DNA of 64,000 nt from Bacillales bacterium (GCA_031546705.1 JAVBJX010000005.1:20992-84991), one strand, 5' to 3'; counted from the stretch's first letter, positions 9,612 to 51,940 are shown. Notes: generated by a model not told the origin, from the sequence alone. Numbers and translations: made by a program.

Positions 9612-9646
9612 GTTACGCTTTCAACAAGTAAACGAGGTGTTTGAAA

Positions 9647-10394: not shown

Positions 10395-10563
10395 TTTAAT
10401 ACGGTAGCTAGGAAGGATATGTTTAACATATCTCAATTACAATGAACACACGAATACAAATAAGAATTGGCTTTGAAAGACCTGACTAATTCAGGAGATA
10501 TCTTGATTCTTTTTTGTAGAATGTGAATGAAAATTATCATAATAAACTTAGGAGGTCACAATC

Positions 10564-10911: not shown

Positions 10912-10925
10912 TAATTTTATTTAAC

Positions 10926-10965
10926 AGAAGTATTTCACAGGGTAAAATTATTGTGAAATACTTCT
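10926..10965 (+). terminator. Intrinsic terminator
   Basis: Perfect 14-bp stem AGAAGTATTTCACA..TGTGAAATACTTCT directly after the stop codon. Confidence 0.75.
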
Positions 10966-11251
10966 AATGTTATTTTATTAAGTATACAATGAAAGATTTT
11001 CAGAAAAATAATCAAAAAAATATAGACTCTACCCCAAAATCAATTCTTGACGAAATAGTATAAGGAAAAGTAATAAAAAAACATTTGAGTAGCTGTTACA
11101 TACAAACAAAGGATTATTTTTGGCATGTAACTGAAAAACATATGAGCTAATTTATGGCAAGAACAGATTTTAGGAAATACCCAAAATATATATACGAATA
11201 ATTTATTGAAATATTAGATATACACTAAAAAATACAAGGAGAACGAATACT

Positions 11252-13009: not shown

Positions 13010-13047
13010 CATAACGTGAGTTCAGCGAAATAAAAGGTGGAAAAATA

Positions 13048-13108
13048 AAAATCTATCCCAAATCTGTTAAAATAAGGTCACCGAAGCCAAACAGAAGGGA
13101 TAGATTTT
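13048..13108 (+). terminator. Hairpin with T-tract after the peptidase gene
   Basis: AAAATCTATCCC..GGGATAGATTTT 12-bp stem with a large loop. Confidence 0.4.
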
Positions 13109-13109
13109 T

Positions 13110-13184
13110 ATGCAAGAATTCTTACTACCTATTTTCTGTGATGTAGATGACTTTTATTTTACTGTCCTATTAGTTATACAATAA
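13110..13184 (+). mobile_element. Relic of an IS982-type transposase N-terminus (24 codons then a stop)
   Basis: MQEFLLPIFCDVDDFYFTVLLVIQ*. The IFCxVDDF motif is, from memory, the conserved N-terminal motif of IS982-family transposases. No DDE domain follows. Confidence 0.35.
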
Positions 13185-13224
13185 GGTGATGATTGCGACT
13201 CATATCCAATCATCACCTTATTGT
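13178..13224. repeat. Perfect 17-bp inverted repeat (not a canonical terminator)
   Basis: ACAATAAGGTGATGATT-N13-AATCATCACCTTATTGT. No U-tract follows it on either strand. Adjacent to the IS relic. Confidence 0.6.
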
Positions 13225-13258
13225 AAAAAATATTATATATGATTGGAGTGTATGACAA

Positions 13259-14244
13259 ATGAAGAAATACATCTTTCTTTTGTTTCTTCTTTTTTTGGTA
13301 GGATGTAACAAACAGGAAAATACACAGATTCTTTTACTGGAAAGTAACCTAGATCAAGTCAATTCCACATCGTATTTAAAAATACTGAACAGTAATTTGA
13401 ACTCTGTCAAAGATATACCTATTTCTGCTAATGGCTTAGAGAAATTGTATGTTGATAATGATAATATACATATTTTCGGAAAATACAATTCAAAAGCAAT
13501 TCAAATACACGAAGAAAAGGTATCAATTAAATCATCAGAATACCCACACCCACTAATTGAAAATTTTCTTGGTACAGGGAATATGATAGTATATAATTAT
13601 TATCAAAATAATTAAAATTACTATACTTATCAATTTATTTATAATAACAAACAGAAAAAGACACTTCGAGTAAAGGGAATACCTTATCATTGTCAAAGTA
13701 ATGGAAAGAATATTTATGTATATGTGAGGGATATGCAAAAACCTACAAGTCAACAATTTTCTGTAATAGAAATTAACTTCAATGAAGCAAAAATCCAAAG
13801 AACCCTTCCAATGGATGGAGAGTATATGATTGCTGACATGAAGTTTTATAATGACCATATGTATTTGCTAGTGAATGGGTTTGATAGTATTGAAGGAGAT
13901 GCGAAATTATTTATTTATAGATTACAGGATTTACAAAAAAAACAGTTGATTTTCTTGGTCAATATAACTCCAATATTTTTATCGAAAGCGGGTATATATA
14001 TATTCTTCAACTTGCGGGTGTAGATGAATCACATCTACTGAAATACAATAACAAACTAGAAACGGTCTTAAAAATGTATAAATTAGAGGGTAAAGTAAAT
14101 AAAGCTGTTTTACAGGAAGATGAATTAATCTTTGTTAGTACAAAAGATAGTAAAAAGAAATTGATTGTCTTGAATTTAAAGAACAGTAAAACTCAAGAAA
14201 CTTCTGTTCCTGATTTCACGCAAGATTTTGTTATTTGGAAGTAA
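13259..14244 (+). pseudogene. Decayed lipoprotein gene (one in-frame stop plus one frameshift)
   Basis: Lipobox LVGC. The reading frame continues through TAA at 13613-13615 in the same frame as ORF 13724..14023. It then shifts by one frame around the A8 run (13934-13941) and continues to the stop at 14242-14244 (..IESGYIYILQLAGVDESHLLKYNNKLETVLK...VIWK*). Confidence 0.65.
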
Positions 14245-14336
14245 ATATTCATGTAAATTTTCAAAATCAGTAAATTAATTTGTGATTATCTTGCTGTTTT
14301 AATTAAAATATGATGTAAGGGGATTAAAAAATAGTT

Positions 14337-14609
14337 ATGACTATATGTAAATATGGTTCTCTTATTTTATCTTTTACCTTTTTCTTTTGGTGGGTACATG
14401 AATTTTTACATGTTGGCCCTCCTTTTTCTTACAGTTTAGCCCCATACAGTATGTATGCATTGTACATTTCTATCTTATTATTTGGTATTTTTTTATACTG
14501 TACAAACAAATTTTCTTTAAAGAAAATTATACTCATACTTTTAATTATTGTTCTTGTGATTATTTTGTTCTTGCTATCTCTTGTTATAAGTGCTTTGATG
14601 GGTTCTTGA
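14337..14609 (+). CDS. Small hydrophobic membrane protein, unknown function
   Basis: 90-aa ORF with three hydrophobic stretches. Weak SD. Confidence 0.4.
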   Translation: MTICKYGSLILSFTFFFWWVHEFLHVGPPFSYSLAPYSMYALYISILLFGIFLYCTNKFSLKKIILILLIIVLVIILFLLSLVISALMGS

Positions 14610-15022
14610 TACTTGTCATTGTAATATTTTCAGTAAACTACAGAATTAGAATGAAATATTTATAAGTAAAAAATGTATAAATATTGATAAGTCAATTGGG
14701 TATCTTGAGAGTAAGTTATTACTTGAAGGATGCCCATTTTCAGAAGGTACAACCTTTGATTTTTACAATATATATATGGAGTCGATAAATCTATTAAAGA
14801 TCCCTATTGCCTTAAAAAAATATATACACAAAGAGATAGAATAATCCACAATAAAGAGAAGAATATAGGGAAAATCCTACTTGAAAACAAAATGGTAGAT
14901 ACAAAAAATCCGTATTTACTATCTGAAGAATTCTATACATATTTGTGATTTCATCCTCTTATTATTGAAATATGCTAATTGTTGTATATAATAAAGTTAT
15001 ACATACATAAGGGGTGATTGAT

Positions 15023-30766: not shown

Positions 30767-31759
30767 CTAACTAGGATAATAGTTTCTTATATTTGGAAAG
30801 TGAACGACAACCTTCGTATACTTTCCCTCTTCTGATGCAATCGACAGGGTGATCCCTAATTTCAGAGCTAATTGTTTTGCTAAATATAAGCCCATCCCCG
30901 TTGATTTAGCATGGCTTCTACCAGTAGAGCCTGTAAAACCCTTTTCAAATACTCTATTAATATCTTCTGTTTTAATGCCAATGCCTGTATCTTGAATGAG
31001 CAGGCGTTTTTCTTTTATATCTTCTTCTATTACAATAATAATTTCTCCATTTTCATCGGTGTATTTTAAAGAGTTGGTAATAATTTGATCAATAATAAAG
31101 GACATCCATTTAAAGTCACTATGAACGAAAGTATCAGAGTTGTCCATTTTAATACGGATCCGTTTTGTGATGAACATTTTCGCATATTTTTTTATACTAT
31201 GTTTTACTACTTTCTCTAATGAGAGTTCATCAATAAAATAATCTTTGGCAAATGAATCAATGCGAGAATAGTACAATGCTTGTTCAACATAATGGTCTAT
31301 CTTATCTAGCTCATCTTCAAATTTATCCACGATATAATCTATCGTTTTTGAATTACTATTTTCTATCAACAAACGACTTGCCGAAATAGGCAGTTTAATT
31401 TCATGAATCCATGACATAATAAAATCTTGATGCTCACTTTTTTCATCATAAAATATTTGTAGTTGTTCTAAGTGTTCATCGTGCAATTTTTTAAGAAGGG
31501 TATAATAAATTGTTTGTTCATTTGTTTGTGGATTTGGTAGCACAGAAAAATCAACAGTTTCGCAGAGTTTTTTATAGAAATTATTCCGCTGATAATAACC
31601 AATGATGAGATAGGTAACAATGAAACAAAAGCATCCAAAATTTGTATACAAAATATTATGTTGGGAACCAAAAAACATAACAAGTGAAACGAAACTCATG
31701 ATTATTGCGTACAGACAAAGGAAAAAACGCTTATCAAATAGATACTGTGTAAAACTCAT
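30767..31759 (-). CDS. BceS-type intramembrane-sensing histidine kinase
   Basis: Two N-terminal TM helices with almost no extracellular loop. H-box SWIHEIKLPIS. HATPase motifs NSLKYT, QDTGIGI, GMGLYL. Overlaps the regulator gene. Confidence 0.8.
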   Translation of the reverse strand: MSFTQYLFDKRFFLCLYAIIMSFVSLVMFFGSQHNILYTNFGCFCFIVTYLIIGYYQRNNFYKKLCETVDFSVLPNPQTNEQTIYYTLLKKLHDEHLEQLQIFYDEKSEHQDFIMSWIHEIKLPISASRLLIENSNSKTIDYIVDKFEDELDKIDHYVEQALYYSRIDSFAKDYFIDELSLEKVVKHSIKKYAKMFITKRIRIKMDNSDTFVHSDFKWMSFIIDQIITNSLKYTDENGEIIIVIEEDIKEKRLLIQDTGIGIKTEDINRVFEKGFTGSTGRSHAKSTGMGLYLAKQLALKLGITLSIASEEGKYTKVVVHFPNIRNYYPS

Positions 31760-32427
31760 GAAATGATATACCCTTGCCCTTTCTTTGTTGTAATGAATTG
31801 TTCTTTTCCGAGTTCATCTAGTTTTTTTCTAAGGCGTGTAATATTCACAGTCAATGTATTATCATCGACAAAACTTTCATCTTCCCAAAGGCTTCTCATA
31901 ATCTTTTCTCGACGAATAATAGTTCCTTGATTTTTGAGTAAAATATGTAGGATCGTAAACTCATTTTTGGTTAAATCGAGTTTTTTATCACCACAAAAAA
32001 CTTCCCAACCATTCAGATTTAGAACAATACCATTGTGTTCAATCACGCTAGAAGATGTATTTAAATAAGCATATGCTCTTCTAAGTAAGGCATGGATTTT
32101 TGCTAGTAAAACATCTGTGTGAAATGGCTTCTGAACAAAATCATCGCCTCCCATATTCATTGCCATAATCATATCCATTGGTGAATTTCTGGAGGAAAGA
32201 AAGATAATTGGTACTTTAGAAATCTCTCTAATTTTATTGCACCAGTGAAAGCCGTCAAACATTGGTAAGTTAATATCTAGTAGGAGAAGATGAGGATTTT
32301 CTTTGATAAAAATCGGTACTATTTGTTCGAATTCTGTTAAAGATACAACTTCAAATCCCCATTTTGTAAGCGTTTCGGCAACCATCTCCCGAATAGTGAC
32401 TTCATCTTCTATTATCATGATTTTCAT
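31756..32427 (-). CDS. OmpR-family response regulator (BceR-like)
   Basis: ATG at 32427 (GGAGGTG 6 nt upstream) is preferred over 32442. Receiver (MIIEDE..LLLDINLP) plus a winged-helix output domain (LT.NEF.IL..L......I..R..IM..LW). Confidence 0.85.
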   Translation of the reverse strand: MKIMIIEDEVTIREMVAETLTKWGFEVVSLTEFEQIVPIFIKENPHLLLLDINLPMFDGFHWCNKIREISKVPIIFLSSRNSPMDMIMAMNMGGDDFVQKPFHTDVLLAKIHALLRRAYAYLNTSSSVIEHNGIVLNLNGWEVFCGDKKLDLTKNEFTILHILLKNQGTIIRREKIMRSLWEDESFVDDNTLTVNITRLRKKLDELGKEQFITTKKGQGYIIS

Positions 32428-32498
32428 TTTTAACACCTCCATATCAATATATTTCTTCTACCGTATTAAATCAACTATTTCTCTTTTCAAAATGAATG

Positions 32499-32512
32499 TG
32501 ACAAAACTGTAA
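32499..32512 (+). promoter_or_regulatory. BceR-type binding site
   Basis: TGACAAAACTGTAA fits the TNACA-N4-TGTAA inverted repeat described for BceR-like regulators. It lies ~80 nt upstream of the ABC ATPase gene. Confidence 0.55.
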
Positions 32513-32592
32513 GGTAAGCAAACAGATTGTAAGATTGTTCGATGGATTGCCCTATTGATTCATTATAAAATAAATACAAGGAGGTATTAAAA

Positions 32593-33360
32593 ATGAAAAA
32601 AATTATAGAAGCAAAACAAATAAAAAAAGTGTATGGAGCAAAAGGGCAATTATTTACAGCATTAGATGGTGTTGATTTGAGTGTAATGGAAGGAGAGTTT
32701 GTTGGGATTATGGGGCCTTCTGGCTCAGGGAAAACAACACTTCTGAATGTACTAGCAACAATTGATCAGCCAACATCTGGTGAAATTATGATTGACGGAA
32801 CAAATATTCTAACAATGAAGGAAATGGAGTTATCTATGTTTCGGCGAGATAAATTAGGATTTATGTTTCAAGATTATAATTTGTTAGATACATTAACAGT
32901 GAAAGAAAATATTATTTTGCCACTAGCACTTGCAAAGATAAACATGAGTGAGATAGAAAAAAGAGTAGAAGAAATCGTAGATAAATTTGGTATTCAAGAG
33001 ATTTTGGAGAAATACCCGTATCAAGTTTCTGGGGGACAAAAGCAACGGACAGCCGCTTCACGTGCAATTATTTCACGCCCAAGTTTGATTTTAGCAGACG
33101 AACCAACAGGAGCATTAGATTCTAAATCGGCAACAGATTTATTAGAGAGTCTTAAAAATTTAAGTCAACAAGATAAAGCGACCATTTTAATGGTCACTCA
33201 TGACGCAGTAGCAGCGAGCTATTGTCAACGAGTTTTATTTATTAAAGACGGAATTATTTTTACAGAGCTTGTAAAAGGTGGAATGATTCGCAAAGAGTTT
33301 TTCGGAAAAATATTAGATGTTTTATCTGTCTTAGGTGGTGGGATTCATGACGTTATTTAG
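32593..33360 (+). CDS. BceA-type ABC ATPase
   Basis: Walker [10 protein letters not shown], signature VSGGQKQR, Walker B LILADEPTGALD. Confidence 0.9.
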   Translation: MKKIIEAKQIKKVYGAKGQLFTALDGVDLSVMEGEFVGIMGPSGSGKTTLLNVLATIDQPTSGEIMIDGTNILTMKEMELSMFRRDKLGFMFQDYNLLDTLTVKENIILPLALAKINMSEIEKRVEEIVDKFGIQEILEKYPYQVSGGQKQRTAASRAIISRPSLILADEPTGALDSKSATDLLESLKNLSQQDKATILMVTHDAVAASYCQRVLFIKDGIIFTELVKGGMIRKEFFGKILDVLSVLGGGIHDVI

Positions 33361-35278
33361 TGTTGCTTGGAAAAATATGAAAGGGGATATGCGAAGTTAT
33401 CTCCTATATTTCTTATCCATGTTATTTAGCGTGGTTGTGTATTATACATTTGTTTCATTAAAATATAGTACAGAAATTCAAAAAGGGCTGGAATCATCCG
33501 ACATCATGTCCTCGCTTTTTAACGGTGCATCTATTATCTTGATTGTATTTGTTTGTATTTTTATTTTGTATTCTAATTCTTTTTTTACAAAAAAACGAAA
33601 GAAAGAAGTTGGATTATATTCTTTACTTGGAGTGAAAAAAAGAACGATTGGTTTGATGCTTTTTTATGAAAGTATGGTGATTAGTTCCCTTGTTATTGTG
33701 GCAGGAATTTTTGTTGGAACATTATTATCCAAATTATTTTCGATGATGTTGTTGAAACTATTAGATATTAATATAGAAATTGGTATGAATTTTTCGTGGG
33801 CGGCTATTGTAAATACAGTTACAGTCTTTGCAATTATTACTTTATTTACATCTATTCAAGCGTATCGTTTGATTTACAGATTTCGTCTAATTGAATTATT
33901 TCAAGCAGAAAAGGAACGAGAAGAAGTCCCAACAGTTTCTACTATTTCCTCAGTAATAGCAGTTGTTTTAATTGGAATTGGTTATTGGCAACTATTGACC
34001 CCAATTGAATCAAATGCCCAATTTGGAAGAATTATGCTTATTGGTATACTATGTATGTTGATTGGTACATACTTGCTATTTCGTTCTCTACTTGTGTATA
34101 TGTTAAAAGCATTTCAAAAAAATAAATCTCGTTATTATCAAGGAACTCGCTTTATTAGTATTTCCCAACTTCTTTTTCGTGTTCGAGCAAATACAAAAGC
34201 ATTTACAATTATTGCTTTGTTAAATGGTATAGTCCTGTCCCTTTTTGGTGTGGTATATAGTCAGTATTATATATCTGAAAAAATGACAAAAGCGTTTGCT
34301 CCATTTAGTTATCAACATGTAGCTATGGACGAAGCATTTAATAAAAAGATAGCATCCATTATAGAGGAAGATAAAGAACACAAAGTTACAGGGAAGATAG
34401 ATATACCAGTCATTAAAGTATCTGGAACAGCAAGTGAAACGGTTTTAATACCACGCTACTTTGAAATTTCAAAAACACCAATTAAAGTTGTTTCAACAAG
34501 CACGTTTAATCAAGTATCATCTGCATTGCATCGAGAAACAACCGTTCACGTTGCTGACAATGAAGCAGTAGCAATTTTACCAGCAGCAACAAAATATACA
34601 CTTGCTCAGTATCAGGAACAACCACTTACATTGAAGTTACCGAAAGAAACCAAAACATTACACTTCAAAAGTCTAGTAGAAGATCGTGTTGCTAATTGGA
34701 GCTTTCCTGATTTCTATGTCATTGTGAGTGATAAATTATTTGCAGATATGTCTAAACAACTTCCAGTGATGACCTTACAATCATATGAAGTGGAAGAGGA
34801 AAAGACAGCAAAAATAACAGGAAATAATTTGAAAGAATTAGCAACAGAAGATAACCAACTAAGTAGCTTTTATGTAAAATATCGTGGGAATCTAGAATCT
34901 TCAGCTATTATATTGTTTGTTGCAGGTTTTGTTGGTTCTGTTTTTCTTATGGCAACAGGCAGTATTATTTATTTCAAACAATTAACAGAAGCCCATGCAG
35001 ACAAAAATCGCTACGAAATTTTAGCAAAGCTTGGGGTGGGGAAGAAAGAAATACGCATAGCTATTGCTAAACAAAATTTATTTACGTTTGCCTTACCACT
35101 TGGAGTTGGTGGCTTACACAGTGCCGTGCTATTAAAAATGGCATCAGGAATGTATTCGGATTTAATTGGTGTGAATCTTCTTATACCAATCATGATTTCC
35201 GTTAGTGCGTATTTTATTATTTATTGTGGATACTATGTGCTAACGACAACGAATTTTATTAAGATTGTGGAGAGCTGA
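33347..35278 (+). CDS. BceB-type FtsX-domain permease (10 TM with a large extracellular domain)
   Basis: About 640 aa with two FtsX-like 4-TM blocks flanking a ~200-aa soluble domain. ATG at 33347 follows AGGTGGTGGG. Confidence 0.85.
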   Translation: MTLFSVAWKNMKGDMRSYLLYFLSMLFSVVVYYTFVSLKYSTEIQKGLESSDIMSSLFNGASIILIVFVCIFILYSNSFFTKKRKKEVGLYSLLGVKKRTIGLMLFYESMVISSLVIVAGIFVGTLLSKLFSMMLLKLLDINIEIGMNFSWAAIVNTVTVFAIITLFTSIQAYRLIYRFRLIELFQAEKEREEVPTVSTISSVIAVVLIGIGYWQLLTPIESNAQFGRIMLIGILCMLIGTYLLFRSLLVYMLKAFQKNKSRYYQGTRFISISQLLFRVRANTKAFTIIALLNGIVLSLFGVVYSQYYISEKMTKAFAPFSYQHVAMDEAFNKKIASIIEEDKEHKVTGKIDIPVIKVSGTASETVLIPRYFEISKTPIKVVSTSTFNQVSSALHRETTVHVADNEAVAILPAATKYTLAQYQEQPLTLKLPKETKTLHFKSLVEDRVANWSFPDFYVIVSDKLFADMSKQLPVMTLQSYEVEEEKTAKITGNNLKELATEDNQLSSFYVKYRGNLESSAIILFVAGFVGSVFLMATGSIIYFKQLTEAHADKNRYEILAKLGVGKKEIRIAIAKQNLFTFALPLGVGGLHSAVLLKMASGMYSDLIGVNLLIPIMISVSAYFIIYCGYYVLTTTNFIKIVES

Positions 35279-35360
35279 AAAAATGAGAGTGGGACGAAAG
35301 GAGGCAAAACATCTCCAATCGTCCCAAACTAATGAAATGCATAATCCTGCAAAATTAATT
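35279..35360 (+). repeat. Copy A of the dispersed hairpin-plus-box intergenic repeat
   Basis: AAAAATGAGAGTGGGACGA..TCGTCCCA hairpin, then ..ATAATCCTGCAAAATTAATT. Shares 16 identical nt and the box with copy C (50650-50740). Confidence 0.6.
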
Positions 35361-35419: not shown

Positions 35420-37804
35420 GTGCTAAAAATCAAAAATACAATAAGACGTAAAATACTTGTGTCTGTAATGATTCCATCACTTATTTTTACTTTAATAACT
35501 TCTATCTATATATTTCAAAAGATTTATAGTAACAAGGTAGATCAAGGTGCTATGGAAATAGAGAATATTATAGAGATTAACTCAGCTAAAATAGTAAGTA
35601 AGTTAGAAGCTATTAATCATATTATACTAATCACATCAAAATTAATAGGAGATTTGGATGCTACCTCAGTAGATGCTCGGCAACAAAGTAACAACGCTTT
35701 AAAATCTATGTTAGTAGATGAAAATATTTACAATGCGTGGATGGTTTTTGAGCCAAACGCATTTGATGGAAAGGATTTTAAACACACCAAAGACTATCCT
35801 GGTGCGTCTTCTGGACGTTTCTTAATGTCTTATATCGTGGTTGATGGTAAAATTGTTGTCTCTCAAAACCTCGATGAATCTACCCTTAACAATCCACAAC
35901 TAAGTGATTGGTATATTCATCCTAGAGATACTGGTAAGTCTATAGGTTATATTGAAAGAAAAAAGTTGAACAGTCACAATGATAAATTAAATGAAGCACC
36001 TATCAATACATTATCCTTGGTCAGTCCCATTTTTCGTCATGGAAAAGTAATTGGTTGCATAGGCGTAGATGTTACCTTTATGTTGCCCAATCATGTAGAT
36101 TCTAGGTTTGGTTATAACAATGCTTCTGTAAGCATGTTTTATCCTGATGGACGTGTGTTTTATTCACCAGACATGACATATACAAATGACAATGTTAGTA
36201 CCTTATTTAGTCATACTGATAAAATTAAAGAAGCTATGCATAAAGGTGAGCCTATATTTTTACACAATGAACACAACGGATTTTTAAACACAGATGCATT
36301 TACGTACTTTAAACCTATCAAAATAGACCTATTCAAAAAAAGCCTATATTTGCATGTTGCTATTCCTGAAACGGAGATTTTAGGAGATACCTTTAAAATG
36401 TTTGGTGTACTGGCAATATGTTTTATTGCTTTACTTTTCCTTTTTCTTTTATTACTTGCCTATGTGGTTGGTCAAATCACCAAACCCATCAATTCTATCG
36501 CTTTAGCTACTGATGCTATTTCATTGGGGCTTTTAGAAACCGAGATACCTGTTTCAACAAAAGCAATCCATGAAATTGATTCCCTATCTCGCACACTACG
36601 CAAAATAGTAGAACAGTTCCAAGTTTATCAAATCATGCAGGAAAAATACCAATTAAACCAGTTTTTAGACGCATCATTAATGGAAGTAATAAAGAATTCC
36701 AAAAACATAAATGTAACATTTGCAGGAATATGTTCCACCTTACAACTATTTTATTGGAACAAAGTTAGAATAGTAGTGCTAGTTGATAATCGACCTATCT
36801 TCACAGATAGTTTGAGTGATTTTTATTATCACTATTTGCTTGCACCCTTGGTACAGAATAGGAAGTTAACTTTTTTCAATTCGTTTTCTTTAGCACAACA
36901 CAAACTTACATTCTTTGAAAAAGATGTAGTATCTATCTGTGTCGTAACTCTTGAAAAAAATGAAACATTTATCGGATACATCATATTAGAAAATACCAAT
37001 ATAACACAATCACTTTCTATTACTGATGAAACTGCCTTGCTTCATGTACAACAAGTCTTAGCATATTGGCTTTTAGATATAGATATCTCACAAATTTCTC
37101 TTGGGCTTGAGAAGGTTTATAATGATGAAATTTCATTAGACATATATCAAGGAGTATTATCACCAAAAAGTATAGAACCAGAAATTTTATATGAAGATCC
37201 ATTACTAAACGTAGCACAAAAAATAGAGGGGCTAGATATAGCAGATGCTATCAGTGCTGTTGGTGGGATGCAAGAAATCGTTAGCAAATCGCTAAAACTT
37301 ACAGCCAGATTGTTGCCTGATTTTATACACACTGTTTCTGAATTGCTAGCTTTGGAAGATTTTAAAAATTTCGCAATACAGATTCACGGTATGAAAGGTT
37401 CATTAAAAAATATACGTGCTAATAAATTAAGTAAATTAGCGAATGACCTTGAACGAGCTGCATATGAAAGTAATTTTGATTATTGTAAGCAACAATTTCC
37501 GACCTTTCTTACTGCTGTTTCAGCTTTTAGTGATGAGTTAAATGCAATTATGATTGAAGATGATGTAGTTAAAAAAGCAGGCGATCAGCAATTACTTATA
37601 TCGGTTCTTGAAAATGCACAAAGTGCAGCCGATGATTTTGAAAGTACGGTTGCCCTTGCATACATGAGTTCTATTTCTGCGTATACTTTCGGTAAAACAG
37701 AAGATATATTAATAGAAAAGATTTGTAACGCATTAGAAGAATTTGATTGCGATATGGCAATCACTCACATTTTATCTTTAAAGGAGCTTTTACCATGGAT
37801 ATAA
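35420..37804 (+). CDS. Membrane sensor with a Cache-like extracytoplasmic domain, HAMP-like linker, GAF-like domain and C-terminal HPt domain (no kinase domain)
   Basis: TM1 (ILVSVMIPSLIFTLITSIYIF), ~300-aa periplasmic-type region, TM2 (FGVLAICFIALLFLFLLLLAYVV). HPt helix AIQIHGMKGSLKNIRANKLSKLANDLE near the C-terminus. The start (GTG at 35420) is uncertain. Confidence 0.65.
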   Translation: MLKIKNTIRRKILVSVMIPSLIFTLITSIYIFQKIYSNKVDQGAMEIENIIEINSAKIVSKLEAINHIILITSKLIGDLDATSVDARQQSNNALKSMLVDENIYNAWMVFEPNAFDGKDFKHTKDYPGASSGRFLMSYIVVDGKIVVSQNLDESTLNNPQLSDWYIHPRDTGKSIGYIERKKLNSHNDKLNEAPINTLSLVSPIFRHGKVIGCIGVDVTFMLPNHVDSRFGYNNASVSMFYPDGRVFYSPDMTYTNDNVSTLFSHTDKIKEAMHKGEPIFLHNEHNGFLNTDAFTYFKPIKIDLFKKSLYLHVAIPETEILGDTFKMFGVLAICFIALLFLFLLLLAYVVGQITKPINSIALATDAISLGLLETEIPVSTKAIHEIDSLSRTLRKIVEQFQVYQIMQEKYQLNQFLDASLMEVIKNSKNINVTFAGICSTLQLFYWNKVRIVVLVDNRPIFTDSLSDFYYHYLLAPLVQNRKLTFFNSFSLAQHKLTFFEKDVVSICVVTLEKNETFIGYIILENTNITQSLSITDETALLHVQQVLAYWLLDIDISQISLGLEKVYNDEISLDIYQGVLSPKSIEPEILYEDPLLNVAQKIEGLDIADAISAVGGMQEIVSKSLKLTARLLPDFIHTVSELLALEDFKNFAIQIHGMKGSLKNIRANKLSKLANDLERAAYESNFDYCKQQFPTFLTAVSAFSDELNAIMIEDDVVKKAGDQQLLISVLENAQSAADDFESTVALAYMSSISAYTFGKTEDILIEKICNALEEFDCDMAITHILSLKELLPWI

Positions 37805-38811
37805 AAGACATAGGAATACAACAACTTAACAAGATACCGGGTGTTTTACTTCCTTCCGACCTTTCAGTAATCAAATTTGAGGAAGTATCAAAAAACATGG
37901 AGCAGTTAATCGATCTTATGCCAATATTTTCTTCTAATTTACAAGAAGCTTTTATAGCCAATAATGAATCAAATTTTATGCAAAGTATAAAAGAAGGCAT
38001 TTCTCTGCTCTCAGCTGTATATGCTAGAAAATTAATCATTGATTTAGAAAAAATAATAAGTTACTTCAAAACTGGAGACAGAGAGGTCTGCGAAATATTT
38101 TTAGAGAAATTTATTTCAGAATTATTTACTTTGTCAATTGATATGCAAAAAGTTATGCATACCTCTATAGATTCAAAAGAAGCAATACTAAAAACTTCTA
38201 ATCAACTATTTAAATTTACAGCGATTCTCTCAGATTTGTCAGCAGTGAAATATTTAATAGACAATGTTGAGTTTGGACGAGCATTTGAAATGCTAAATGA
38301 TATACATGCTGTTGCATTCTTAACGCAGACATCTATGGCAAAACTTCATTTAAAAACCTATCGTCAAGAAGAAGCACTAGAATCAATACAAAGTTTAATA
38401 GATGAATTTACGCAAAAAATTGTGGAGACTAAAATAAGCAAATCTGACAGTAAGAAAAAAATATTGGCAGTTGATGATAGACCAGAAATTTTAATGGTAT
38501 TGTCTGAAGTTCTTAAAGATGATTATCACGTACTTTGTGTACCTTCAAGCGAGACTGCTCTTAAGGTCTTGGACAAACACGAGATTAGCTTATTTATATT
38601 AGATATAGGAATGCCAAATATGAATGGGATAGAACTTGCGAAACGTATTAAGTCTACATCAAAGTTTAAAGAAGTTCCGATTGTTTTTCTAACGGGTAAC
38701 GCCACAAGAGATTATTTACATCAAGCAATCCATGCAGGTGCAGCAGATTTCATTGTTAAACCTATCGTACAAGAAAATATTATTTATAGAGTGCAACAAT
38801 TATTAAATTAA
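37795..38811 (+). CDS. Response-regulator receiver protein with an N-terminal helical (HPt-like, His-less) domain and no output domain
   Basis: ATG 8 nt after AAGGAG; overlaps the upstream gene by 10 nt. Complete receiver: AVDDRPE, FILDIGMPNMNG, FLTG, VKP. Confidence 0.75.
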   Translation: MDIKDIGIQQLNKIPGVLLPSDLSVIKFEEVSKNMEQLIDLMPIFSSNLQEAFIANNESNFMQSIKEGISLLSAVYARKLIIDLEKIISYFKTGDREVCEIFLEKFISELFTLSIDMQKVMHTSIDSKEAILKTSNQLFKFTAILSDLSAVKYLIDNVEFGRAFEMLNDIHAVAFLTQTSMAKLHLKTYRQEEALESIQSLIDEFTQKIVETKISKSDSKKKILAVDDRPEILMVLSEVLKDDYHVLCVPSSETALKVLDKHEISLFILDIGMPNMNGIELAKRIKSTSKFKEVPIVFLTGNATRDYLHQAIHAGAADFIVKPIVQENIIYRVQQLLN

Positions 38812-38825
38812 TGTGGCGGTGACCT

Positions 38826-39818
38826 ATGAAACATTTGTTTGTAATAAATCCCTTGGCTGGAAATGTAAAAGGTCAGCAAAAAGAGATTATTAACATGATA
38901 GATAGTTTTTTTGAGAACTATAAAAACATAGAGTACCACATACACGTTACACGATGGAGTCGTGACACTGTAGGGTTTGTACGTAGATTTTTACTCAATG
39001 AAAAAGAAATAGTGAGGATATACGCCGTTGGTGGGAGTGGAACACTTTTTGAAACCATAAACGGTTCAATTGGTATGCCAAATGTTCAAATTGCCTGCTA
39101 TCCGCTTGGCTATACCAATTCATTTATTAGGTATTTTGGTGATGACAAGAAGCATTTGTTTTTATCTCTTAGAAATCTAGTTTTTTCTGAAACCATACCA
39201 ATAGATGTGATTCGTTGTGGTAGACACTATGCAGTTTCTTTTTCTGCCATCGGCTTAGAGTCTGGAAGTACCCGTGATATACATATGATCAATAAAAACA
39301 AGCAAAACGCTAAGGGCTATTTATTTAGGGAACTGTTATCCTTAAAAAAATTTGTTTCTAACCATCAACAGTACACAATCACGCCTATTGGTGGGGGCGA
39401 TTCATCAGAATTAAATGAAGTTTTTGTTTCTGGTTACATGCTCATGCCTAGTAATAAGAAAGCTACTGATCTTACAGCACTTGTCGTAGCTAATGCTCCC
39501 TACTATAGTAAATCGTTTGCTACAATGCATGCACATCCAAACGATGCTATGATAGATATCTATATGACAAAAAAAAGGCATGCTTGGAAAATAGTATCAA
39601 CTAACTTAACTGGCAGTCACCAGAAATTATCTGATCATCTATCCCATTTTAGTGGAACAAGTTTAAAAGTTGTATCTGATACGGTTATGTGTATTTCTAT
39701 AGATGGTGAACTGTTTTTCGAAACTTCGATAGACTATCAAATTATACCTTACGCTATTGATTTTGTGTGTCCAAGAGGCATTGATATTGCCAGTATATAT
39801 GAATCAATAAATGATTAG
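38826..39818 (+). CDS. Divergent diacylglycerol/lipid kinase catalytic-domain protein (YegS/BmrU/DgkB family)
   Basis: [12 protein letters not shown] start. GGSGT in place of [13 protein letters not shown] in place of PxGTGNDF, and a C-terminal ISIDGE motif. Confidence 0.6.
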
Positions 39819-39828
39819 GAGGGCTTGT

Positions 39829-42246
39829 ATGATTTCTATATTTCCAAAAGGAGAAAATAGCAAAGAACGAAACTATAATGCAGAAATCTCTGCTGTATTT
39901 ATAGTTTGGTTTTTTGTAATCGCAAGTGTCATATACGGCTATTTCTTTGTAGATGGTATATATTGGATTATGCGGCTAGTATTCGGTATGATTGCGGGTA
40001 TCACCGTCACTATTATGAATAGACTCAAAGTTAATGTGGGCATTGTTTCTTGGTTTGTACCTTTCATGTTGATACTGTGTGAAACCTCTGTTGCCTTATC
40101 TATTGGTGGGGATAGGTTATATTTTTTAGTTGCGTTGTGCAGTACCTATGTTTCATTGCTCTATAACAGAGGAAACGGACTACTGCTGTTTCTGGGTTTG
40201 ACAAACACTTTGATTGTTATATGCATGTTTGTTTTTGGAAAAAATTTGCTTGATCAAAATGCTACGTTTATTGATCAAGTTATGGAATTTATGACTTTTA
40301 ATCTAGGAAATATCATTTCATATTTCATCTGTTTATTTTGGGAAGCACATTCTCGAAAAGCAGAACGAAAGAGTAACACATTTGAAATTATCATGAATAC
40401 TACGCCTAACTTTATGGTGGTCATTGATGAAAATGCCAAAGTAGATTATGTAAGCCAATCTCTAACAAGTTGGCTTAATATCCCCTCAAGGGAGTACGCC
40501 AAAAAAATACCTCTTATGGATTTGTTTTCATCTGGGGAATTGATCGTTTTATTTCAAGAACTAATGGAATCTAATCAAATGGTAGCCAAAAACTTCGAGA
40601 TAACAATAGATGACGAAAAGCAATGGTTTGCGATGCAATCATCACCTATGCAAAAAGATAAAGTCAGTCGTTTTTTTGAGTGGCATGACATAACTCCAAT
40701 CATGACTGCAAAAAACGAAGCTGAGGTAGCAACTCGTGCTAAAAGCGATTTTTTAGCAAACATGAGTCATGAAATAAGAACGCCAATGAACGCCATCACT
40801 GGAATGACAGAGCTTATGATGTTAACAGATTTAAACAGAGAACAACTAGATTATGCGTTGGCTATAAAACATTCAGCGGACTCCTTACTTAAGATTATCA
40901 ATGATATTTTAGATTTTTCGAAAATTGATGCACATAAGATGGAGATTATCAATGTACCCTTTGATTTTTCATCATTGATTAATGATACCATTAACATTGT
41001 TGGACTAAAGGCACATTCTTCTAATAATACATTTACTGTTTTTATTTCAAAAGATATGCCCCCAATGATTAATTGCGATGAACTTAGGCTTAAGCAAGTG
41101 TTGTTGAATATTTTAAATAATGCAATAAAATTTACCTCAAAAGGACATATTTCTTTTGAGTGTTTGCCAGAATTTTTGGATAGTGGGAAACTGAAAGTAA
41201 ATTTTATCATTAAAGATACCGGTATAGGAATCAAGCCTGAGGATATAGACAAACTTTTTAGTGAGTTTTCGCAGTTAGATACAAGAAAAAATCGTAACAT
41301 TGTGGGAACGGGTTTAGGGTTAGCTATTAGTCGATCGTTGGTTCGATTAATGGGTGGTGAATTTGGTGTGAGTAGTGAATATGGTAAAGGCTCAACATTT
41401 TCTTTTTATATTATTTGCGATACTTATAACACAGAAAACACCATACACATATCTACTCCAGAGATATATAATATACTTTGTTATGAGTCAAATGTATATC
41501 ATTACCAAGTTCTCAACAAGATGTTGATTGACTTAGGAGTGAATTTTCAAATAACAAATGAATATGCTGAATTTGATTCGAAACTAAACAGTGATACATA
41601 CACCCATGTTTTATTTGAAAAAAATGCACTGAAAATTGTACTTGATTATAGCAAAACTTTGCCAGCGGATAAGTTACCAAAGTTTGTTATGACAAAAAAT
41701 ATGCAAGATCGAATGGAACACTTAGATTTAAACACGGGGATTTTAAATAAACCATTGGTTACATCTAGCTTAATCAACTTTATACTTGGACATCAACTTG
41801 ATAACATATACTACAAAGAAAAAGAAATGCTCTTAGGGGGATTTGAAACCAATAATGTCCATGTCTTATTGGTAGATGATAACTCTGTAAATCTTCTGGT
41901 GGGTCAAGGACTTTTGAACAAGTACAAAATTAAAGTAGTTACTGCATCAGGAGGGCAAGAAGCTATTGATAAAGTACAAACTCACGATTTTGATATAGTA
42001 TTTATGGATCACATGATGCCTGGTATAGACGGAATAGATGCTACAAAAATAATTCGAGCTATGGGTGGACGTTATGAAAGTGTGCCAATTATCGCATTGT
42101 CAGCAAACGCTATTATTGGCGTGAGAGAATTGTACTTAGAAGCTGGCATGAACGACTTTGTTTCTAAGCCAATTGATATACGTAACTTACACGAAGTGCT
42201 ACTGAAATATATTCCATCAGAAAAAATCGTTAGACTAGAAAAATAA
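39829..42246 (+). CDS. Hybrid sensor histidine kinase (multi-TM, PAS, HisKA, HATPase_c, REC)
   Basis: ATG 5 nt after AGGAGGG. H-box [17 protein letters not shown]-box LNNAIKFT, G-boxes DTGIGI and [10 protein letters not shown]-terminal receiver [24 protein letters not shown]. Confidence 0.85.
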
Positions 42247-42328
42247 CTATTCAGACCTACCAGAATAGTTATTTTGATAGGTCTGAACAGTTATTTTTAT
42301 GAATTTTAAAGATTAAAAAAACATGTAT

Positions 42329-42868
42329 TTATTTTCCAACATCCTCTTTCGCACTTCTTCCCTCAAAAAACAATACAGCTTCATCCGCTTCACAGGCTTT
42401 TGCTGTTAGTTGTGTAGGTGTAATTTTGAAAATAGTTGTTTTACTGCCAAAACCTGAACGATACTTCTCGATAAATGTTTTTGATAATGGTGTATCAAAA
42501 TAATTTGGGACATATTTATCAATCATTGCTTGCATTGCTTTTGTTCCTTCACCTAAATCGACTTGTTCTACTGTTCCAGAAATTATTACACTCATGTACA
42601 CTGTACCAATATTGGCAGGAACAGGGTGAGCAATTGTTCCGTAGTCTTCTCCTACAGTAAAGCAAACATGATTATTTTTTGCCATCATGTCATTTTTTCT
42701 TCCTGTATCTGCTCCGTGAAAATAAATAAAGCCATTTCGCCAAACAAAATTGACTGGAATCACGTACGGTATATTTTCATTTGCCATTCCAAGAAATCCC
42801 ACTTTTGCTTGTGCTAGAAATTCATCCATTTTTTGTTGATCTGTACATTCATTTTTAGCATATCTCAT
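42329..42868 (-). CDS. Pyridoxamine 5'-phosphate oxidase-family FMN-binding protein (Nim-like)
   Basis: ..VGFLGMA.EN.PYV.PVNFV...G.IYFHGA..G.K motif pattern. 179 aa. Confidence 0.7.
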   Translation of the reverse strand: MRYAKNECTDQQKMDEFLAQAKVGFLGMANENIPYVIPVNFVWRNGFIYFHGADTGRKNDMMAKNNHVCFTVGEDYGTIAHPVPANIGTVYMSVIISGTVEQVDLGEGTKAMQAMIDKYVPNYFDTPLSKTFIEKYRSGFGSKTTIFKITPTQLTAKACEADEAVLFFEGRSAKEDVGK

Positions 42869-49219: not shown

Positions 49220-49375
49220 AATGAGTGAGGCTGTGATGAAAAGGGTGTTTTTCACTGCTTTTATCACAGCCTCATGAACTAAACTACGCATCCGCTGTGC
49301 GTTCACCTACGGCGAGGCTAAAGCCCTATATTGGAAATAAATGGTTGCCAAAATCCTATAAAATCAACATTTTGA
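49218..49375 (+). repeat. Copy B of the hairpin-plus-box repeat (with a GC-rich 45-nt insert)
   Basis: AAAATGAGTGAGGCTGTGATGAAAAG..CTTTTATCACAGCCTCA hairpin (49226-49274), then the GGTTGCCAAAATCCT box (49343-49357). An inverted partial copy (AAAAATGAGTGAAGATGGGACGAGG on the minus strand) lies at 49406-49430. Confidence 0.6.
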
Positions 49376-49470
49376 TAAACTATCCATTTAAAAAACATCA
49401 AAAAACCTCGTCCCATCTTCACTCATTTTTTTGTATGTTACTAATACATATTTATCTAAAAATGTAATAC

Positions 49471-50586
49471 CTACTTTAAATTCTCAGGATTCAATGGTTC
49501 TAATTCAGGGATAACAAAACGTCCGTCTTTGCGGATTAATACATCATCAAAGTAAATTTCTCCACCACCATATTCAGGGCGTTGAATCATAACTAAATCC
49601 CAATGAACACTTGATTTATTTCCATTCCAAGCTGTATCATATGCTTGTCCTGGTGTGAAGTGGAAACTTCCATCAATTTTTTCGTCAAATAAAATATCCA
49701 TCATTGGATGTTGAATGTATGGATTTACCCCAATCGCAAATTCCCCAACATATCTTGCACCTTCATCTGAATTAAACACTTTGTTAATACGTTCTGTGTC
49801 ATTTGCTGTAGCTTCAACAATTTTTCCATCTTTAAATGTTAATTTTACATTTTCATAAGTAAAGCCTTGGTATGGAGATGGGGCGTTGTAAGAAATCACA
49901 CCATTCACAGAATCTCTCACAGGTGCAGTGAATACTTCACCATCTGGAATATTAAATTCACCTGCACATTTGACAGATGGAATATCTTTGATAGAGAATG
50001 ATAAATCTGTTCCAACACCAGTGAGGCGAACTTTATCAGTTCGATCCATTAAAGCAGAAAGAGCATCCATAGCTTTATCCATTTTGCTGTAATCTAAATT
50101 ACATACTTGGAAATAAAAATCTTCAAATGCTTCTGTACTCATTTTTGCAAGTTGGGCCATAGAAGATGTTGGGTAACGAAGGACAACCCACTTTGTATTT
50201 GGTACACGATGTTTTTGGTGAACATCTGCCCAAATTGTTTTGTAGTATGTTTTCATATTTTCAGACGGTACATCCGACTGTTCTGTAATATTATCTCCCG
50301 CACGAAGTCCGATATAAGCATCCATGTTTTCCATGACGTTTGCTTCAAATGAAGCCATTGTTTCGTAATGTTCTTCTGTAGCTCCCATAAGTAGAGAACG
50401 ATCAATTTGATGGTCTTTCAAAGAAACGAATGGGTAACCACCTGCGGCATATGCTTCTTTTACAAGTTCAATTACAAGTTCCCGTTGTAAACCAAAGTTT
50501 TCGATTAGAACTTTTTCGCCTTTTTGCAAGCGAATGGAATAATTAATTAGATTTTTTGCTAACTGATTAATACGAGGGTCTTTCAT
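49471..50586 (-). CDS. M29-family aminopeptidase (AmpS/PepS-like), paralogue 1
   Basis: 371 aa. KDPRI..LAKNLINYS..LQKGEKVLIE N-terminus and HWD..M C-terminal region typical of M29 thermophilic metalloproteases. Confidence 0.8.
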   Translation of the reverse strand: MKDPRINQLAKNLINYSIRLQKGEKVLIENFGLQRELVIELVKEAYAAGGYPFVSLKDHQIDRSLLMGATEEHYETMASFEANVMENMDAYIGLRAGDNITEQSDVPSENMKTYYKTIWADVHQKHRVPNTKWVVLRYPTSSMAQLAKMSTEAFEDFYFQVCNLDYSKMDKAMDALSALMDRTDKVRLTGVGTDLSFSIKDIPSVKCAGEFNIPDGEVFTAPVRDSVNGVISYNAPSPYQGFTYENVKLTFKDGKIVEATANDTERINKVFNSDEGARYVGEFAIGVNPYIQHPMMDILFDEKIDGSFHFTPGQAYDTAWNGNKSSVHWDLVMIQRPEYGGGEIYFDDVLIRKDGRFVIPELEPLNPENLK

Positions 50587-50649
50587 TTGTATTCCTCCTC
50601 TTTATTGTATGTAACATGGTTATTTTAACAGATAGTGTATGGAAAGAGC

Positions 50650-50740
50650 AAAAATGAGAGTGGGAAAATAGAGGCAAAAAACACCTCTATTTTCCCACTC
50701 TTGTGTTTAGGTTTGGTTGCCAAAATCCTGAAAAATTAAT
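50650..50740 (+). repeat. Copy C of the hairpin-plus-box repeat
   Basis: Perfect 18-bp stem AGAGTGGGAAAATAGAGG-N9-CCTCTATTTTCCCACTCT (50657-50701), then GGTTGCCAAAATCCTGAAAAATTAAT (50715-50740). Confidence 0.65.
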
Positions 50741-50821
50741 GTTTTAATGAAATAATCCTAAATACTAAAAACCCTTGAAAAAGACTTCTTTCTCACACTC
50801 AAAATAAATTTTCTCGAATAA

Positions 50822-51940
50822 TTACTTCAAATTCTCAGGATTTAATGGCTCTAACTCTGGAATAACAAAAAGTCCATCTTTGCGGATTAACACATCATCA
50901 AAATAAATTTCTCCACCGCCATATTCAGGACGTTGAATCATCACTAAATCCCAGTGAACAGTTGATTTGTTTCCGTTGTAAGCATCATCATATGCAGCAC
51001 CGGGTGTGAAATGGAAACTTCCAGCGATTTTTTCATCAAATAAAATATCCATCATTGGATTTAGAATGTAAGGGTTTACCCCAATCGCAAATTCTCCAAC
51101 AAATCTCGCACCCTCATCTGTATCAAATATTTTATTAATGCGTTCTGTATCATTTGCCGTTGCTTCAACAATTTTTCCATCTTTAAATGTTAATTTTACA
51201 TTCTCATAAGTAAATCCTTGGTATGGAGATGGCGTATTGTAAGAAATAACGCCATTAACAGAAGTCTTCACAGGTGCAGTGAATACTTCACCGTCTGGAA
51301 TATTAACCTCTCCTGCACACTTAATTGCTGGAATATCTTTAATCGAGAATGTTAAATCTGTTCCAACACCAACAAGACGGACTTTATCCGTGTTATTCAT
51401 AAGCGTTACAAGGGCATCCATTGCTTTGTCCATCTTACTGTAATCTAAATTACACACTTGGAAATAAAAATCTTCAAATGCTTCTGTGCTCATTTTTGCG
51501 AGTTGAGCCATTGAAGATGTTGGATAACGAAGTACGACCCATTTTGTATGTGGCACACGTTGTTTGAAATGAACTCTTTCAGCAACAGTTTGTCCATGAA
51601 TTTTCATCTTTTCGGAAGGAACATCGGCTGTTTCTGTAATATTATTTCCAGAACGGAGCCCGATATAAGCATTCATTTCTTTCATGACATTTAATTCGAA
51701 GTCAGCAATCGTGTCGAAGTGTTCTGGTGTTGCCTCCATCAGTAAAGCACGATTTATTTGTGCGTCTTTTAGAGAAACGAATGGATAACCACCTACAGCA
51801 TACGCTTCTTTCACAAGTTCGATAACAAGTTCACGTTCAAGTCCTGTATTTTCAATTAGAACTTTTTCACCTTTTTGTAAACGGACAGAGTAGTTAATTA
51901 AATTTTTTGCTAGAATCGTAATGCGAGGATCTTTCATCAT
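50822..51940 (-). CDS. M29-family aminopeptidase (AmpS/PepS-like), paralogue 2
   Basis: 372 aa. Collinear with paralogue 1, with long identical stretches (for example WVVLRYPTSSMAQLAKMSTEAFEDFYFQVCNLDYSKMDKAMDAL). Confidence 0.8.
   Translation of the reverse strand: MMKDPRITILAKNLINYSVRLQKGEKVLIENTGLERELVIELVKEAYAVGGYPFVSLKDAQINRALLMEATPEHFDTIADFELNVMKEMNAYIGLRSGNNITETADVPSEKMKIHGQTVAERVHFKQRVPHTKWVVLRYPTSSMAQLAKMSTEAFEDFYFQVCNLDYSKMDKAMDALVTLMNNTDKVRLVGVGTDLTFSIKDIPAIKCAGEVNIPDGEVFTAPVKTSVNGVISYNTPSPYQGFTYENVKLTFKDGKIVEATANDTERINKIFDTDEGARFVGEFAIGVNPYILNPMMDILFDEKIAGSFHFTPGAAYDDAYNGNKSTVHWDLVMIQRPEYGGGEIYFDDVLIRKDGLFVIPELEPLNPENLK

Follow-up and report, generated by a model that had tools for sequence, protein, structure and literature searches.

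The 64,000-nucleotide (nt) stretch of DNA from a Bacillales bacterium analysed here (GCA_031546705.1 JAVBJX010000005.1:20992-84991; the window) contains, at positions 35,420 to 42,246, an island of four co-directional genes, here termed A to D, that encode the parts of a multistep phosphorelay together with a homologue of lipid kinases. In the explanation that we favour, and to which we would give a probability of about 0.6, the island is one operon and a probably acquired, Firmicute-type variant of a conserved, uncharacterised signalling module formed by A, C and D. The relay would run from the hybrid kinase D to the histidine phosphotransfer (HPt) protein A and thence to the receiver protein B, and the lipid kinase-like protein C would be a partner of the kinase. 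The four genes, with the lengths of their products in amino acids (aa), are as follows:

35420..37804, plus strand: gene A, 794 aa, a membrane sensor-HPt protein without a kinase core
37795..38811, plus strand: gene B, 338 aa, a His-less HPt-like module followed by a complete receiver
38826..39818, plus strand: gene C, 330 aa, DAGK_cat/YegS-like, its motifs degenerate
39829..42246, plus strand: gene D, 805 aa, a hybrid histidine kinase lacking HPt

Both the listing of open reading frames (ORFs) and the reading of the junctions bear out the tight packing noted in a preliminary description of this DNA, namely a 10-nt overlap followed by gaps of 14 and 10 nt, and the four genes form one operon, in an operon-like arrangement with translational coupling. 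Gene B lies inside an ORF at 37747-38811, with its likely start at 37795, and D inside an ORF at 39811-42246, with its likely start at 39829. The ATG of B at 37795 overlaps the end of A (stop codon at 37802-37804) by 10 nt and is preceded at a distance of 8 nt by the ribosome-binding site AAAGGAG; a 14-nt gap lies ahead of the ATG of C at 38826; and the stop codon of C falls inside the sequence TAGGAGG, a ribosome-binding site 6 nt past which stands the ATG of D at 39829, the gap between the two genes being 10 nt. The public gene call for A (P0001) is 778 aa long and starts at Met17. We consider GTG at 35420, or a start near it, more likely, because the motif IKxxIRRKIL ahead of Met17 is conserved in both orthologues of A.

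Gene C is the least conventional component of the island. Its assignment as DAGK_cat/YegS-like stands at the level of the family: Pfam matches DAGK_cat at 38.9 bits (gathering score 23.6) and, below the gathering score of 27, YegS_C at 20 bits, and the best matches among solved structures are BmrU and diacylglycerol (DAG) kinases (E 2.5e-5). With 64.1 bits, C falls short of the cut-off of 118.65 for the NCBIfam lipid kinase family TIGR00147. What does not carry over from the family is the nucleotide site, the motifs of which are degenerate. GGDG is described as the ATP-binding motif in this superfamily (PMC10331486), and the longer signature GGDGT is replaced by GGTGT in the closest orthologue of C and by GGSGT in C itself:

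39030..39044, plus strand: GGSGT of gene C in place of GGDGT
39702..39710, plus strand: DGE motif of gene C, retained

We compared the C homologues that have a hybrid kinase gene directly downstream (linked) with those that do not (unlinked), taking loci from genome species representatives and from protein look-ups. The Asp of GGDG is retained in just 4 of the 33 kinase-linked homologues, versus 54 of the 55 unlinked ones, and the sole unlinked homologue without it sits at a contig end. In the linked subfamily the position is occupied by T, S, N, M or V, and this side chain is therefore free of its ancestral constraint. The same pattern is seen at G12, N75, G97, D99 and GGG229-231, which are present in at least 94% of the unlinked homologues (at least 98% for all but N75) and are degenerate in the linked group only; in the window protein D99 is Ser (NS for ND), G97 is Thr, G12 belongs to a variable position and GGG229-231 is lost. 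D127 and D293-G-E295 are retained in both groups, D127 and D293 being invariant and E295 present in at least 90% in an alignment of 43 sequences. Taking the roles of individual residues from family conservation and from the published statement on GGDG (PMC10331486), C appears to have lost the residues of the nucleotide site and kept those of the interdomain cleft, and given these conserved cleft residues, ligand binding or an altered chemistry is still possible. As the aspartates of GGDG and ND and other fixed positions have been lost, and lost specifically in the kinase-linked subfamily, C is probably not a conventional ATP-dependent lipid kinase. Given this degeneracy, C should not be taken for a plain lipid kinase, nor for the obvious enzymatic output that the preliminary description had implied.

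Homologues of C number about 100 at 35-45% identity, with named sources in Synergistaceae, Oscillospiraceae, Treponema, Spirochaetales, Zoogloeaceae and metagenome-assembled genomes (MAGs) of Betaproteobacteria. For the analysis of synteny we used 8 loci fetched via homologous proteins and further loci from the genome species representatives. The neighbourhood of the DAGK-like gene is indeed conserved: a D-type hybrid kinase gene lies directly 3' of C in all 31 non-redundant linked loci with a long enough contig, in lineages labelled as spirochaetes, Zoogloeaceae, Synergistaceae and Clostridia. Directly upstream of C there is usually an A-type sensor-HPt gene, and upstream of A often the gene for a regulator. 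These regulators combine REC with HD_5 in 10 out of 10 proteins scanned and carry HD and HHE..GYP motifs in 17 out of 17 inspected, which identifies the 17 as predicted RpfG-like REC-HD-GYP proteins. B-type regulators are confined to the window and the loci L001, L002 and L088, and B stands between A and C in the window, L001 and L088. A word-index search with A retrieved two orthologues only, at 55% and 52% identity; the former belongs to L002, which has A and B and then reaches the end of its contig, and the latter to L001, a Eubacteriales locus with the full A-B-C-D order. An exhaustive profile search raised the number of full-length A-type representatives to about 25. Three further loci (L083, L084 and L090) have no regulator gene adjoining A-C-D, and in five more distant ones (L086, L087, L108, L111 and L113) the HPt module is carried by the kinase itself, with GGDG retained in L086 and L111.

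The recurring core of the module consists of A, the membrane sensor-HPt protein, C, the degenerate DAGK_cat/YegS-like protein, and D, the multi-transmembrane (TM) hybrid kinase, and the window island is a rare Firmicute variant of a module that usually has a REC-HD-GYP protein as its regulator. The kind of regulator changes between loci (REC-HD-GYP, B-type or none seen) and the C-then-D order does not, and it is therefore most likely that C operates together with D, or with A, and is not a target of B. Neither Pfam nor NCBIfam detected a DNA-binding, GGDEF or EAL domain in the four window proteins, as had been stated before, and Pfam found no REC-HD-GYP regulator in the window operon; the lack of a classical output domain thus holds for this operon, and the family at large does have a recognisable output, the REC-HD-GYP regulator seen in 17 loci. 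Our full-text literature searches found no description of a system joining DAGK, hybrid kinase, HPt and HD-GYP components. Many of the MAGs that carry the module presumably come from termite and millipede guts, judging by the isolate names. At the locus of Treponema primitia ZAS-10 (L113, 3790-12891), the related cluster combines a REC-HD-GYP gene with genes for a C homologue in which the motif reads GGNR and for a hybrid kinase fused to an HPt module, and the adjoining genes encode a second, divergently oriented kinase with the HPt module and a stand-alone HPt-module protein of 249 aa.

The A protein was previously read as a TM, Cache-like, TM, HAMP-like, GAF-like and HPt protein devoid of a kinase domain. 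Its residue layout and the site of its predicted phosphorylation are:

Gene A protein: TM1 12-30; dCache ~40-320; TM2 328-346; HAMP 349-397; GAF-like domain ~405-560; HPt ~600-715; helical extension to 794
37385..37387, plus strand: codon of A His656, in IQIHGMKGS, the predicted phospho-accepting His of the HPt domain

This domain reading holds at the level of the family although it is weak on the single protein. A hydropathy scan finds two TM segments, and the Pfam matches of the window protein, all of them below threshold, are to Hpt (20.9 bits, gathering score 24.6), MCP-like PDC (19.7 bits) and HAMP (18.2 bits). Among solved structures, a profile built from three A orthologues finds the dCache ligand-binding domains of chemoreceptors (E 4e-9), and in the family of 22 full-length members HAMP is matched in all, Hpt in 17 and PDC or dCache models in many, whilst the GAF matches are weak and in a minority (GAF_2 in 5, GAF in 3). 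Both H656 and K659 are invariant in these 22 members, at identities down to 20%. The C-terminal 205 aa of A, comprising the HPt domain and the helical extension, have 122 near-full-length matches among representative proteins, and the phospho-accepting His is present in 122 of the resulting 123 copies. In a profile search with this module, the solved structures that match best are HptB, AHP2, LuxU and a Shewanella HPt, and Foldseek searches with an AlphaFold model of A residues 401-794 recover HPt domains as the best matches (3myf, TM-score 0.83-0.85), so that profile and structure comparisons agree on the HPt assignment. The HPt-plus-extension unit (A 590-794, 37187-37801) is about 205 aa long, with an extension of about 90 residues that ends in a conserved LExxDYD-like motif; many hybrid kinases end in it, other proteins consist of it alone, and in the proteins scanned Pfam covers its HPt part only.

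Among the relatives of A are the kinases P0136 and P0143, which contain dCache, HAMP, GAF (33 bits), HisKA, HATPase, REC and Hpt domains. Kinases of this type match A in the sensor region at the N-terminus (profile positions 4-627) and in the HPt at the C-terminus, and differ from it in having a HisKA-HATPase-REC core, which D would supply to A in trans along with a different, multi-TM input. There is no HisKA or HATPase remnant in A, the middle domain of which is GAF-like, and A thus looks like an unorthodox sensor kinase stripped of its kinase and receiver core. Among solved structures, those that best match its dCache domain include the amine-sensing TlpQ, McpU, PacA and McpX. The amine motif of dCache_1AM comprises R103, D133, W155, F188, Y189, M215, S217 and D235 of PctD (PMC10589655). 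Candidate equivalents in A, with PctD standing outside the alignment, are R87 and D119 (at least 90%) and Y165 (invariant) among the 22 members, and W164 and D217, which are invariant among three close orthologues only; the ligand of A may be a small amine. In the plasmid collection the only matches were those of the Cache domain to chemoreceptors.

The architecture proposed earlier for D (multi-TM, PAS, HisKA, HATPase and REC) is confirmed by Pfam, with HisKA at 72.2 bits, HATPase_c at 91.1, Response_reg at 90.3 and a weak PAS match at 20, and by hydropathy, where five TM segments pass the threshold between residues 23 and 136 and two of the five overlap. From the H-box SHEIRTP, the phosphorylatable histidine is His314 (codon 40768-40770), and the receiver has Asp727 in FMDHMMPG (codon 42007-42009) and the DD at the end of strand 1. 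Between HATPase_c and the receiver, residues ~545-680 (41450-41860) show a receiver-like alternation of strands and helices that ends in NKP and has no acidic pocket; no family model matched this interval, which may be a pseudo-receiver.

The receiver of B is complete, as had been noted (Response_reg, 92 bits, residues 223-333; DD227-228, D270, T300 and K322, with the Asp270 codon at 38602-38604). The remainder of the protein, previously just a helical N-domain, can now be assigned to a homologue of the HPt-plus-extension unit of A that is devoid of the phospho-accepting His. No Pfam family matches residues 1-215, and Pfam detects no DNA-binding or effector domain in B. In the AlphaFold model (pLDDT 72) the N-domain is all-helical, with helix lengths of 27, 17, 16, 27, 21, 10, 12 and 26 as compared to 27, 17, 15, 29, 19, 11, 12 and 12 in the model of the A HPt plus extension. 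A first comparison of B and A profiles, from three-sequence alignments, was not significant (probability 1.2%, E 0.044); with four B orthologues against the 123-sequence module profile, hhalign gives a probability of 96.7% (E 3.4e-10) over 189 collinear columns, aligning B 8-204 with A 596-790, and a repeat with smaller alignments from an alignment tool gives 89.7% (E 1.9e-6). The position of the HPt histidine is K, N, E and K in the four B orthologues, and Lys66 in the window protein. Thus, B residues 8-204 are best described as a predicted His-less HPt-like module fused to a complete receiver, which probably acts via protein-protein contacts, for instance by docking on a receiver domain. Foldseek with full-length B recovered receiver domains only and nothing on the N-domain, a word-index search with the N-domain found one orthologue only, and scanning metagenomes with the B alignment gave generic receivers but no further B-type locus. 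In the literature searched, we found no description of a bacterial pseudo-HPt-receiver fusion.

With D His314, D Asp727, A His656 and B Asp270 in place, every part of a His-Asp-His-Asp relay is present in the island, in keeping with the preliminary description. Known phosphorelays, through the logic of their domains, let us infer the order of transfer: D would autophosphorylate on His314 and pass the phosphoryl group to Asp727 of its own receiver, from which it would move to A His656 and then to Asp270 of the B receiver. Through its dCache domain A would feed a second signal, from outside the cytoplasm, into the relay, much like RcsD in the Rcs system. B would stand in for the RpfG-like REC-HD-GYP regulator of most relatives, with its His-less HPt-like domain docking, e.g., on a receiver domain. 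For C, the most likely role is that of a partner of the kinase D, regulatory or lipid-binding, either as a co-sensor or as a membrane-recruited accessory protein; we propose this role because its nucleotide-site residues are lost, its cleft residues are kept and its gene always stands directly before that of D. What the analysis shows is thus the structure of the genes, their domain homologies and motif states, the synteny and the deviation in codon usage, while the transfer order, the partnership of C with D and the parts played by B and C are predictions.

Horizontal acquisition of the island, suggested earlier from its codon choice, is likely. Codon fractions in the island differ from those of the backbone genes (ATA 0.42 versus 0.19, CCA 0.44 versus 0.72, ACC 0.22 versus 0.08), so that the claimed excess of ATA and ACC and deficit of CCA are recovered, and the codon choice for Ile, Pro, Thr and Asn deviates at p < 1e-5 in each case. 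With a summed chi-square of 247 (df 41, p 3e-31), the island deviates more than any other of the 79 contiguous runs of genes of similar size, and the highest value for a run that does not overlap it is 106; other nearby accessory genes, such as the BceAB-like ones, have backbone-like codon usage. All four genes have their nearest relatives in Clostridia MAGs, the nearest homologues being 52-62% identical and found in Eubacteriales MAGs, and among the 80 loci returned only L128 and L150 are labelled as Bacilli, both of them of the unlinked GGDG type. The host is a divergent member of the Bacillaceae, with an AcsA that is Bacillaceae-like and at most 81% identical to that of any species representative. 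It is thus on the codon usage, the most deviant block in the window, and on the Eubacteriales affinities that we base the probable transfer. The likely transfer would not be a recent one: identity to the nearest relatives is just 52-62%, and the search for a mobile-element scar found none. No close relatives of the flanking ABC permease were found among the genome species representatives, which likewise include no near relative of the host that could serve for an empty-site comparison.

Several points weigh against the explanation set out above. The module is known from sequence alone. The retention in C of the invariant D293, the nearly invariant E295 and D127 means that some catalysis may persist, and four kinase-linked homologues of C retain GGDG. 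The alignment behind the conclusions on B is thin, B-type regulators being present in four loci only. In the window A protein the Pfam Hpt and HAMP matches lie under their gathering scores, and the model of A(401-794) has a mean pLDDT of 48, the HPt part alone reaching 66-81. As regards the transfer, codon usage sets the island apart from the rest of the window but GC content (0.33 versus 0.34) and GC3 are indistinct from those of the host; low expression could account for some of the codon deviation; and there are no mobility genes on either side of the island.

These points leave room for other explanations, most of which turn on C. It could be an active lipid kinase and the output of the relay, switched by phosphorylated B or A and thereby altering membrane lipids. 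C is the sole enzyme-like protein of the operon, its D127 and DGE are conserved, and no other output domain is present; however, the Asp of GGDG varies (T, S, N, M, V) in the linked subfamily, where four further motif positions fixed in unlinked homologues are lost as well, the pairing of C with D does not depend on the type of regulator (REC-HD-GYP, B-type or none seen), and its 64 bits lie below the lipid kinase cut-off of 118.65. We therefore hold an active lipid kinase to be unlikely. Alternatively, C could have exchanged ATP for the phospho-His of the relay, i.e. of the A HPt, as its phosphate donor and phosphorylate a membrane lipid or small molecule, so that the relay would end in a metabolite. 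Such a change has a precedent in the PTS-dependent dihydroxyacetone kinases, which changed their donor from ATP to a phospho-histidine protein, and it would accord with the selective degeneracy of the phosphate-donor site, the retention of acceptor-side cleft residues and the usual position of the C gene directly after the HPt-carrying gene. Against this, neither a fusion nor a known interaction joins DAGK_cat and HPt domains, B lies between A and C in the window, L001 and L088, and simple loss of function, yielding a pseudoenzyme, is the simpler reading; the exchange of donors is therefore very improbable. A milder version, also undescribed, is that C may be a lipid-binding pseudokinase that gives D a lipid-sensing input.

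The place of B in the relay can also be questioned. Rather than receiving the phosphoryl group as an output, B might act as a phosphate sink or competitor, its pseudo-HPt docking on the D receiver in the manner of AHP6, with the true output being a regulator encoded elsewhere and phosphorylated by the A HPt. B does lack an effector domain and its HPt-like domain lacks the His, L083, L084 and L090 have no regulator next to A-C-D, and pseudo-HPt proteins are reported in plant phosphorelays. Yet B is translationally coupled inside the operon and fills the slot of the true output regulator of the relatives, although theirs lie upstream of A, and no orphan regulator can be named in a view of the genome that spans 64 kb; on balance a sink role for B is distinctly unlikely. 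Finally, DAGK_cat genes are common in Firmicutes, and one might ask whether C is a housekeeping gene of the DgkB/YegS type that has come to lie by chance amid unrelated two-component genes. This is contradicted by the C-then-D synteny, which is seen again, the genes overlapping or separated by short gaps, in 31 non-redundant loci of lineages labelled as distant, while 54 unlinked homologues form a separate group that retains GGDG, and we give chance adjacency next to no weight.

Although no sequence relationship between the module and the Rcs system was found, the two are alike in their logic. In Enterobacteria, Rcs comprises the hybrid kinase RcsC, the membrane HPt protein RcsD and the regulator RcsB, with a His-Asp-His-Asp flow. 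In both, a hybrid kinase without an HPt domain is joined by a separate inner-membrane protein that has no kinase activity, an extracytoplasmic domain being followed by an HPt at the C-terminus. They differ in that dCache, HAMP and GAF-like domains make up A and RcsD contains a degenerate kinase-like region; in that RcsB binds DNA (FixJ-type), whereas B has the His-less HPt-like domain; and in the lack of a DAGK-like component in Rcs. Another parallel is with the Rpf/DSF system of Xanthomonas, composed of the signal synthase RpfF, the hybrid kinase RpfC and the REC-HD-GYP regulator RpfG. Here too a multi-TM hybrid kinase is encoded beside a lipid-related enzyme-fold protein, and a REC-HD-GYP protein is found in 17 relatives of the module. 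RpfF is known to bind the receiver domain of RpfC, and PDB entry 3m6m is among the Foldseek hits for full-length B. Unlike C, with its DAGK_cat fold and degenerate nucleotide site, RpfF has the crotonase fold; RpfC carries its own HPt, which here is on the separate A protein; and the window copy of the module has no HD-GYP regulator.

For an association of a DAGK_cat protein with a signalling protein at the membrane there is a precedent in Staphylococcus aureus, where the polytopic membrane protein GdpS recruits the soluble DgkB via a catalytically dispensable cytoplasmic domain (PMC11962490). This pairing of a signalling-type membrane protein with a soluble DAGK_cat protein resembles that suggested for C and D. 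Unlike C, DgkB is active and essential and has intact motifs, and GdpS is a 5TMR_LYT-GGDEF protein rather than a histidine kinase, with no phosphorelay involved. The N-domain of B, in turn, is comparable to the AHP6-type pseudo-HPt proteins of plants, which have an HPt fold without the phospho-accepting His and are thought to act by competition or docking. B shares with them the HPt fold without this His, and differs in being bacterial, in its extra helical extension and in its fusion to a functional-looking receiver; the resemblance seen is at the level of the HPt fold.

The island is flanked by a BceRS/BceAB-like module, a PNPOx-like gene and an amino-acid ABC transporter, and a structured element lies at either end:

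35287..35326, minus strand: upstream boundary hairpin, -22.1 kcal/mol, z -4.6, terminator-like, with the U-run 3' on the minus strand
42239..42297, both strands: downstream palindrome of 59 nt, -28.2 / -32.2 kcal/mol, z -8.7 / -10.5, with flanking A- and T-runs

The hairpins reported downstream of the island thus correspond to a palindrome stable on both strands, which looks like a bidirectional terminator between the convergent D and PNPOx-like (42329-42868, minus strand) genes. The upstream boundary, which had been regarded as a repeat copy, fared less well: it is a terminator-like hairpin for the opposite strand, without an exact repeat and without the marks of a clear mobile-element boundary. 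It has no exact or near-exact copy in the window at up to 3 mismatches. With looser blastn and alignment, the hairpin (35279-35360) shares its architecture with an element at about 50643-50760, in which the related hairpin copy spans 50643-50703 and the shared features fall in 50650-50740: the 16-nt left flank AAAAATGAGAGTGGGA is identical at 50650, the stems show compensatory changes, and a 17-mer / AATCCTGnAAAATTAAT stretch is shared after the hairpin. The second element sits downstream of an M29 aminopeptidase gene, with a further related site at 49342-49382, and both hairpins (near 35287 and near 50650) are oriented as minus-strand terminators. From the hairpin at 35287 it is 7 kb to the nearest minus-strand gene, the PNPOx-like gene past the island, and given this the island could have been inserted between a gene and its terminator.

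Directly upstream, the BceRS/BceAB-like module at 30767-35278 encodes a histidine kinase, an OmpR-type regulator, an ABC ATPase and an FtsX-type permease of 647 aa. Tandem paralogous M29 (thermophilic metalloprotease / aminopeptidase) genes on the minus strand, at 49471-50586 and 50822-51940, have 77-86% DNA identity over 300-nt stretches, and a similar element lies downstream of each. The GC content of 7000-15000 is 0.26-0.30 over several kb, as against a window mean of 0.34, and this may be another foreign or unusual segment. No Rfam family was matched in the window, and PADLOC gave no meaningful match and no sign of a defence system.

Multistep phosphorelays as such are already well known, and what is new here is the variant with a DAGK-like partner. 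We found no described counterpart for three of its features: a DAGK_cat-fold protein with a degenerate site as the obligate gene neighbour of a hybrid kinase in distant lineages, a dCache-HAMP-GAF sensor that retains the HPt alone, which represents RcsD-like logic outside Enterobacteria, and a His-less HPt-like module fused to a receiver. For annotation, this means that the kinase-linked subfamily of C should not be labelled 'diacylglycerol kinase' by default. The family is concentrated in metagenome-assembled genomes, and Treponema primitia ZAS-10, as a named carrier, offers a possible experimental system. If C were to phosphorylate its substrate at the expense of the phospho-His of the relay, a two-component phosphorelay would end directly in a phosphorylated metabolite. 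If C is instead a lipid-binding co-sensor, the state of the membrane lipids and an extracellular ligand, possibly an amine, would feed one phosphorelay, which in most carriers would end in a REC-HD-GYP regulator, of a type generally taken to degrade cyclic di-GMP.

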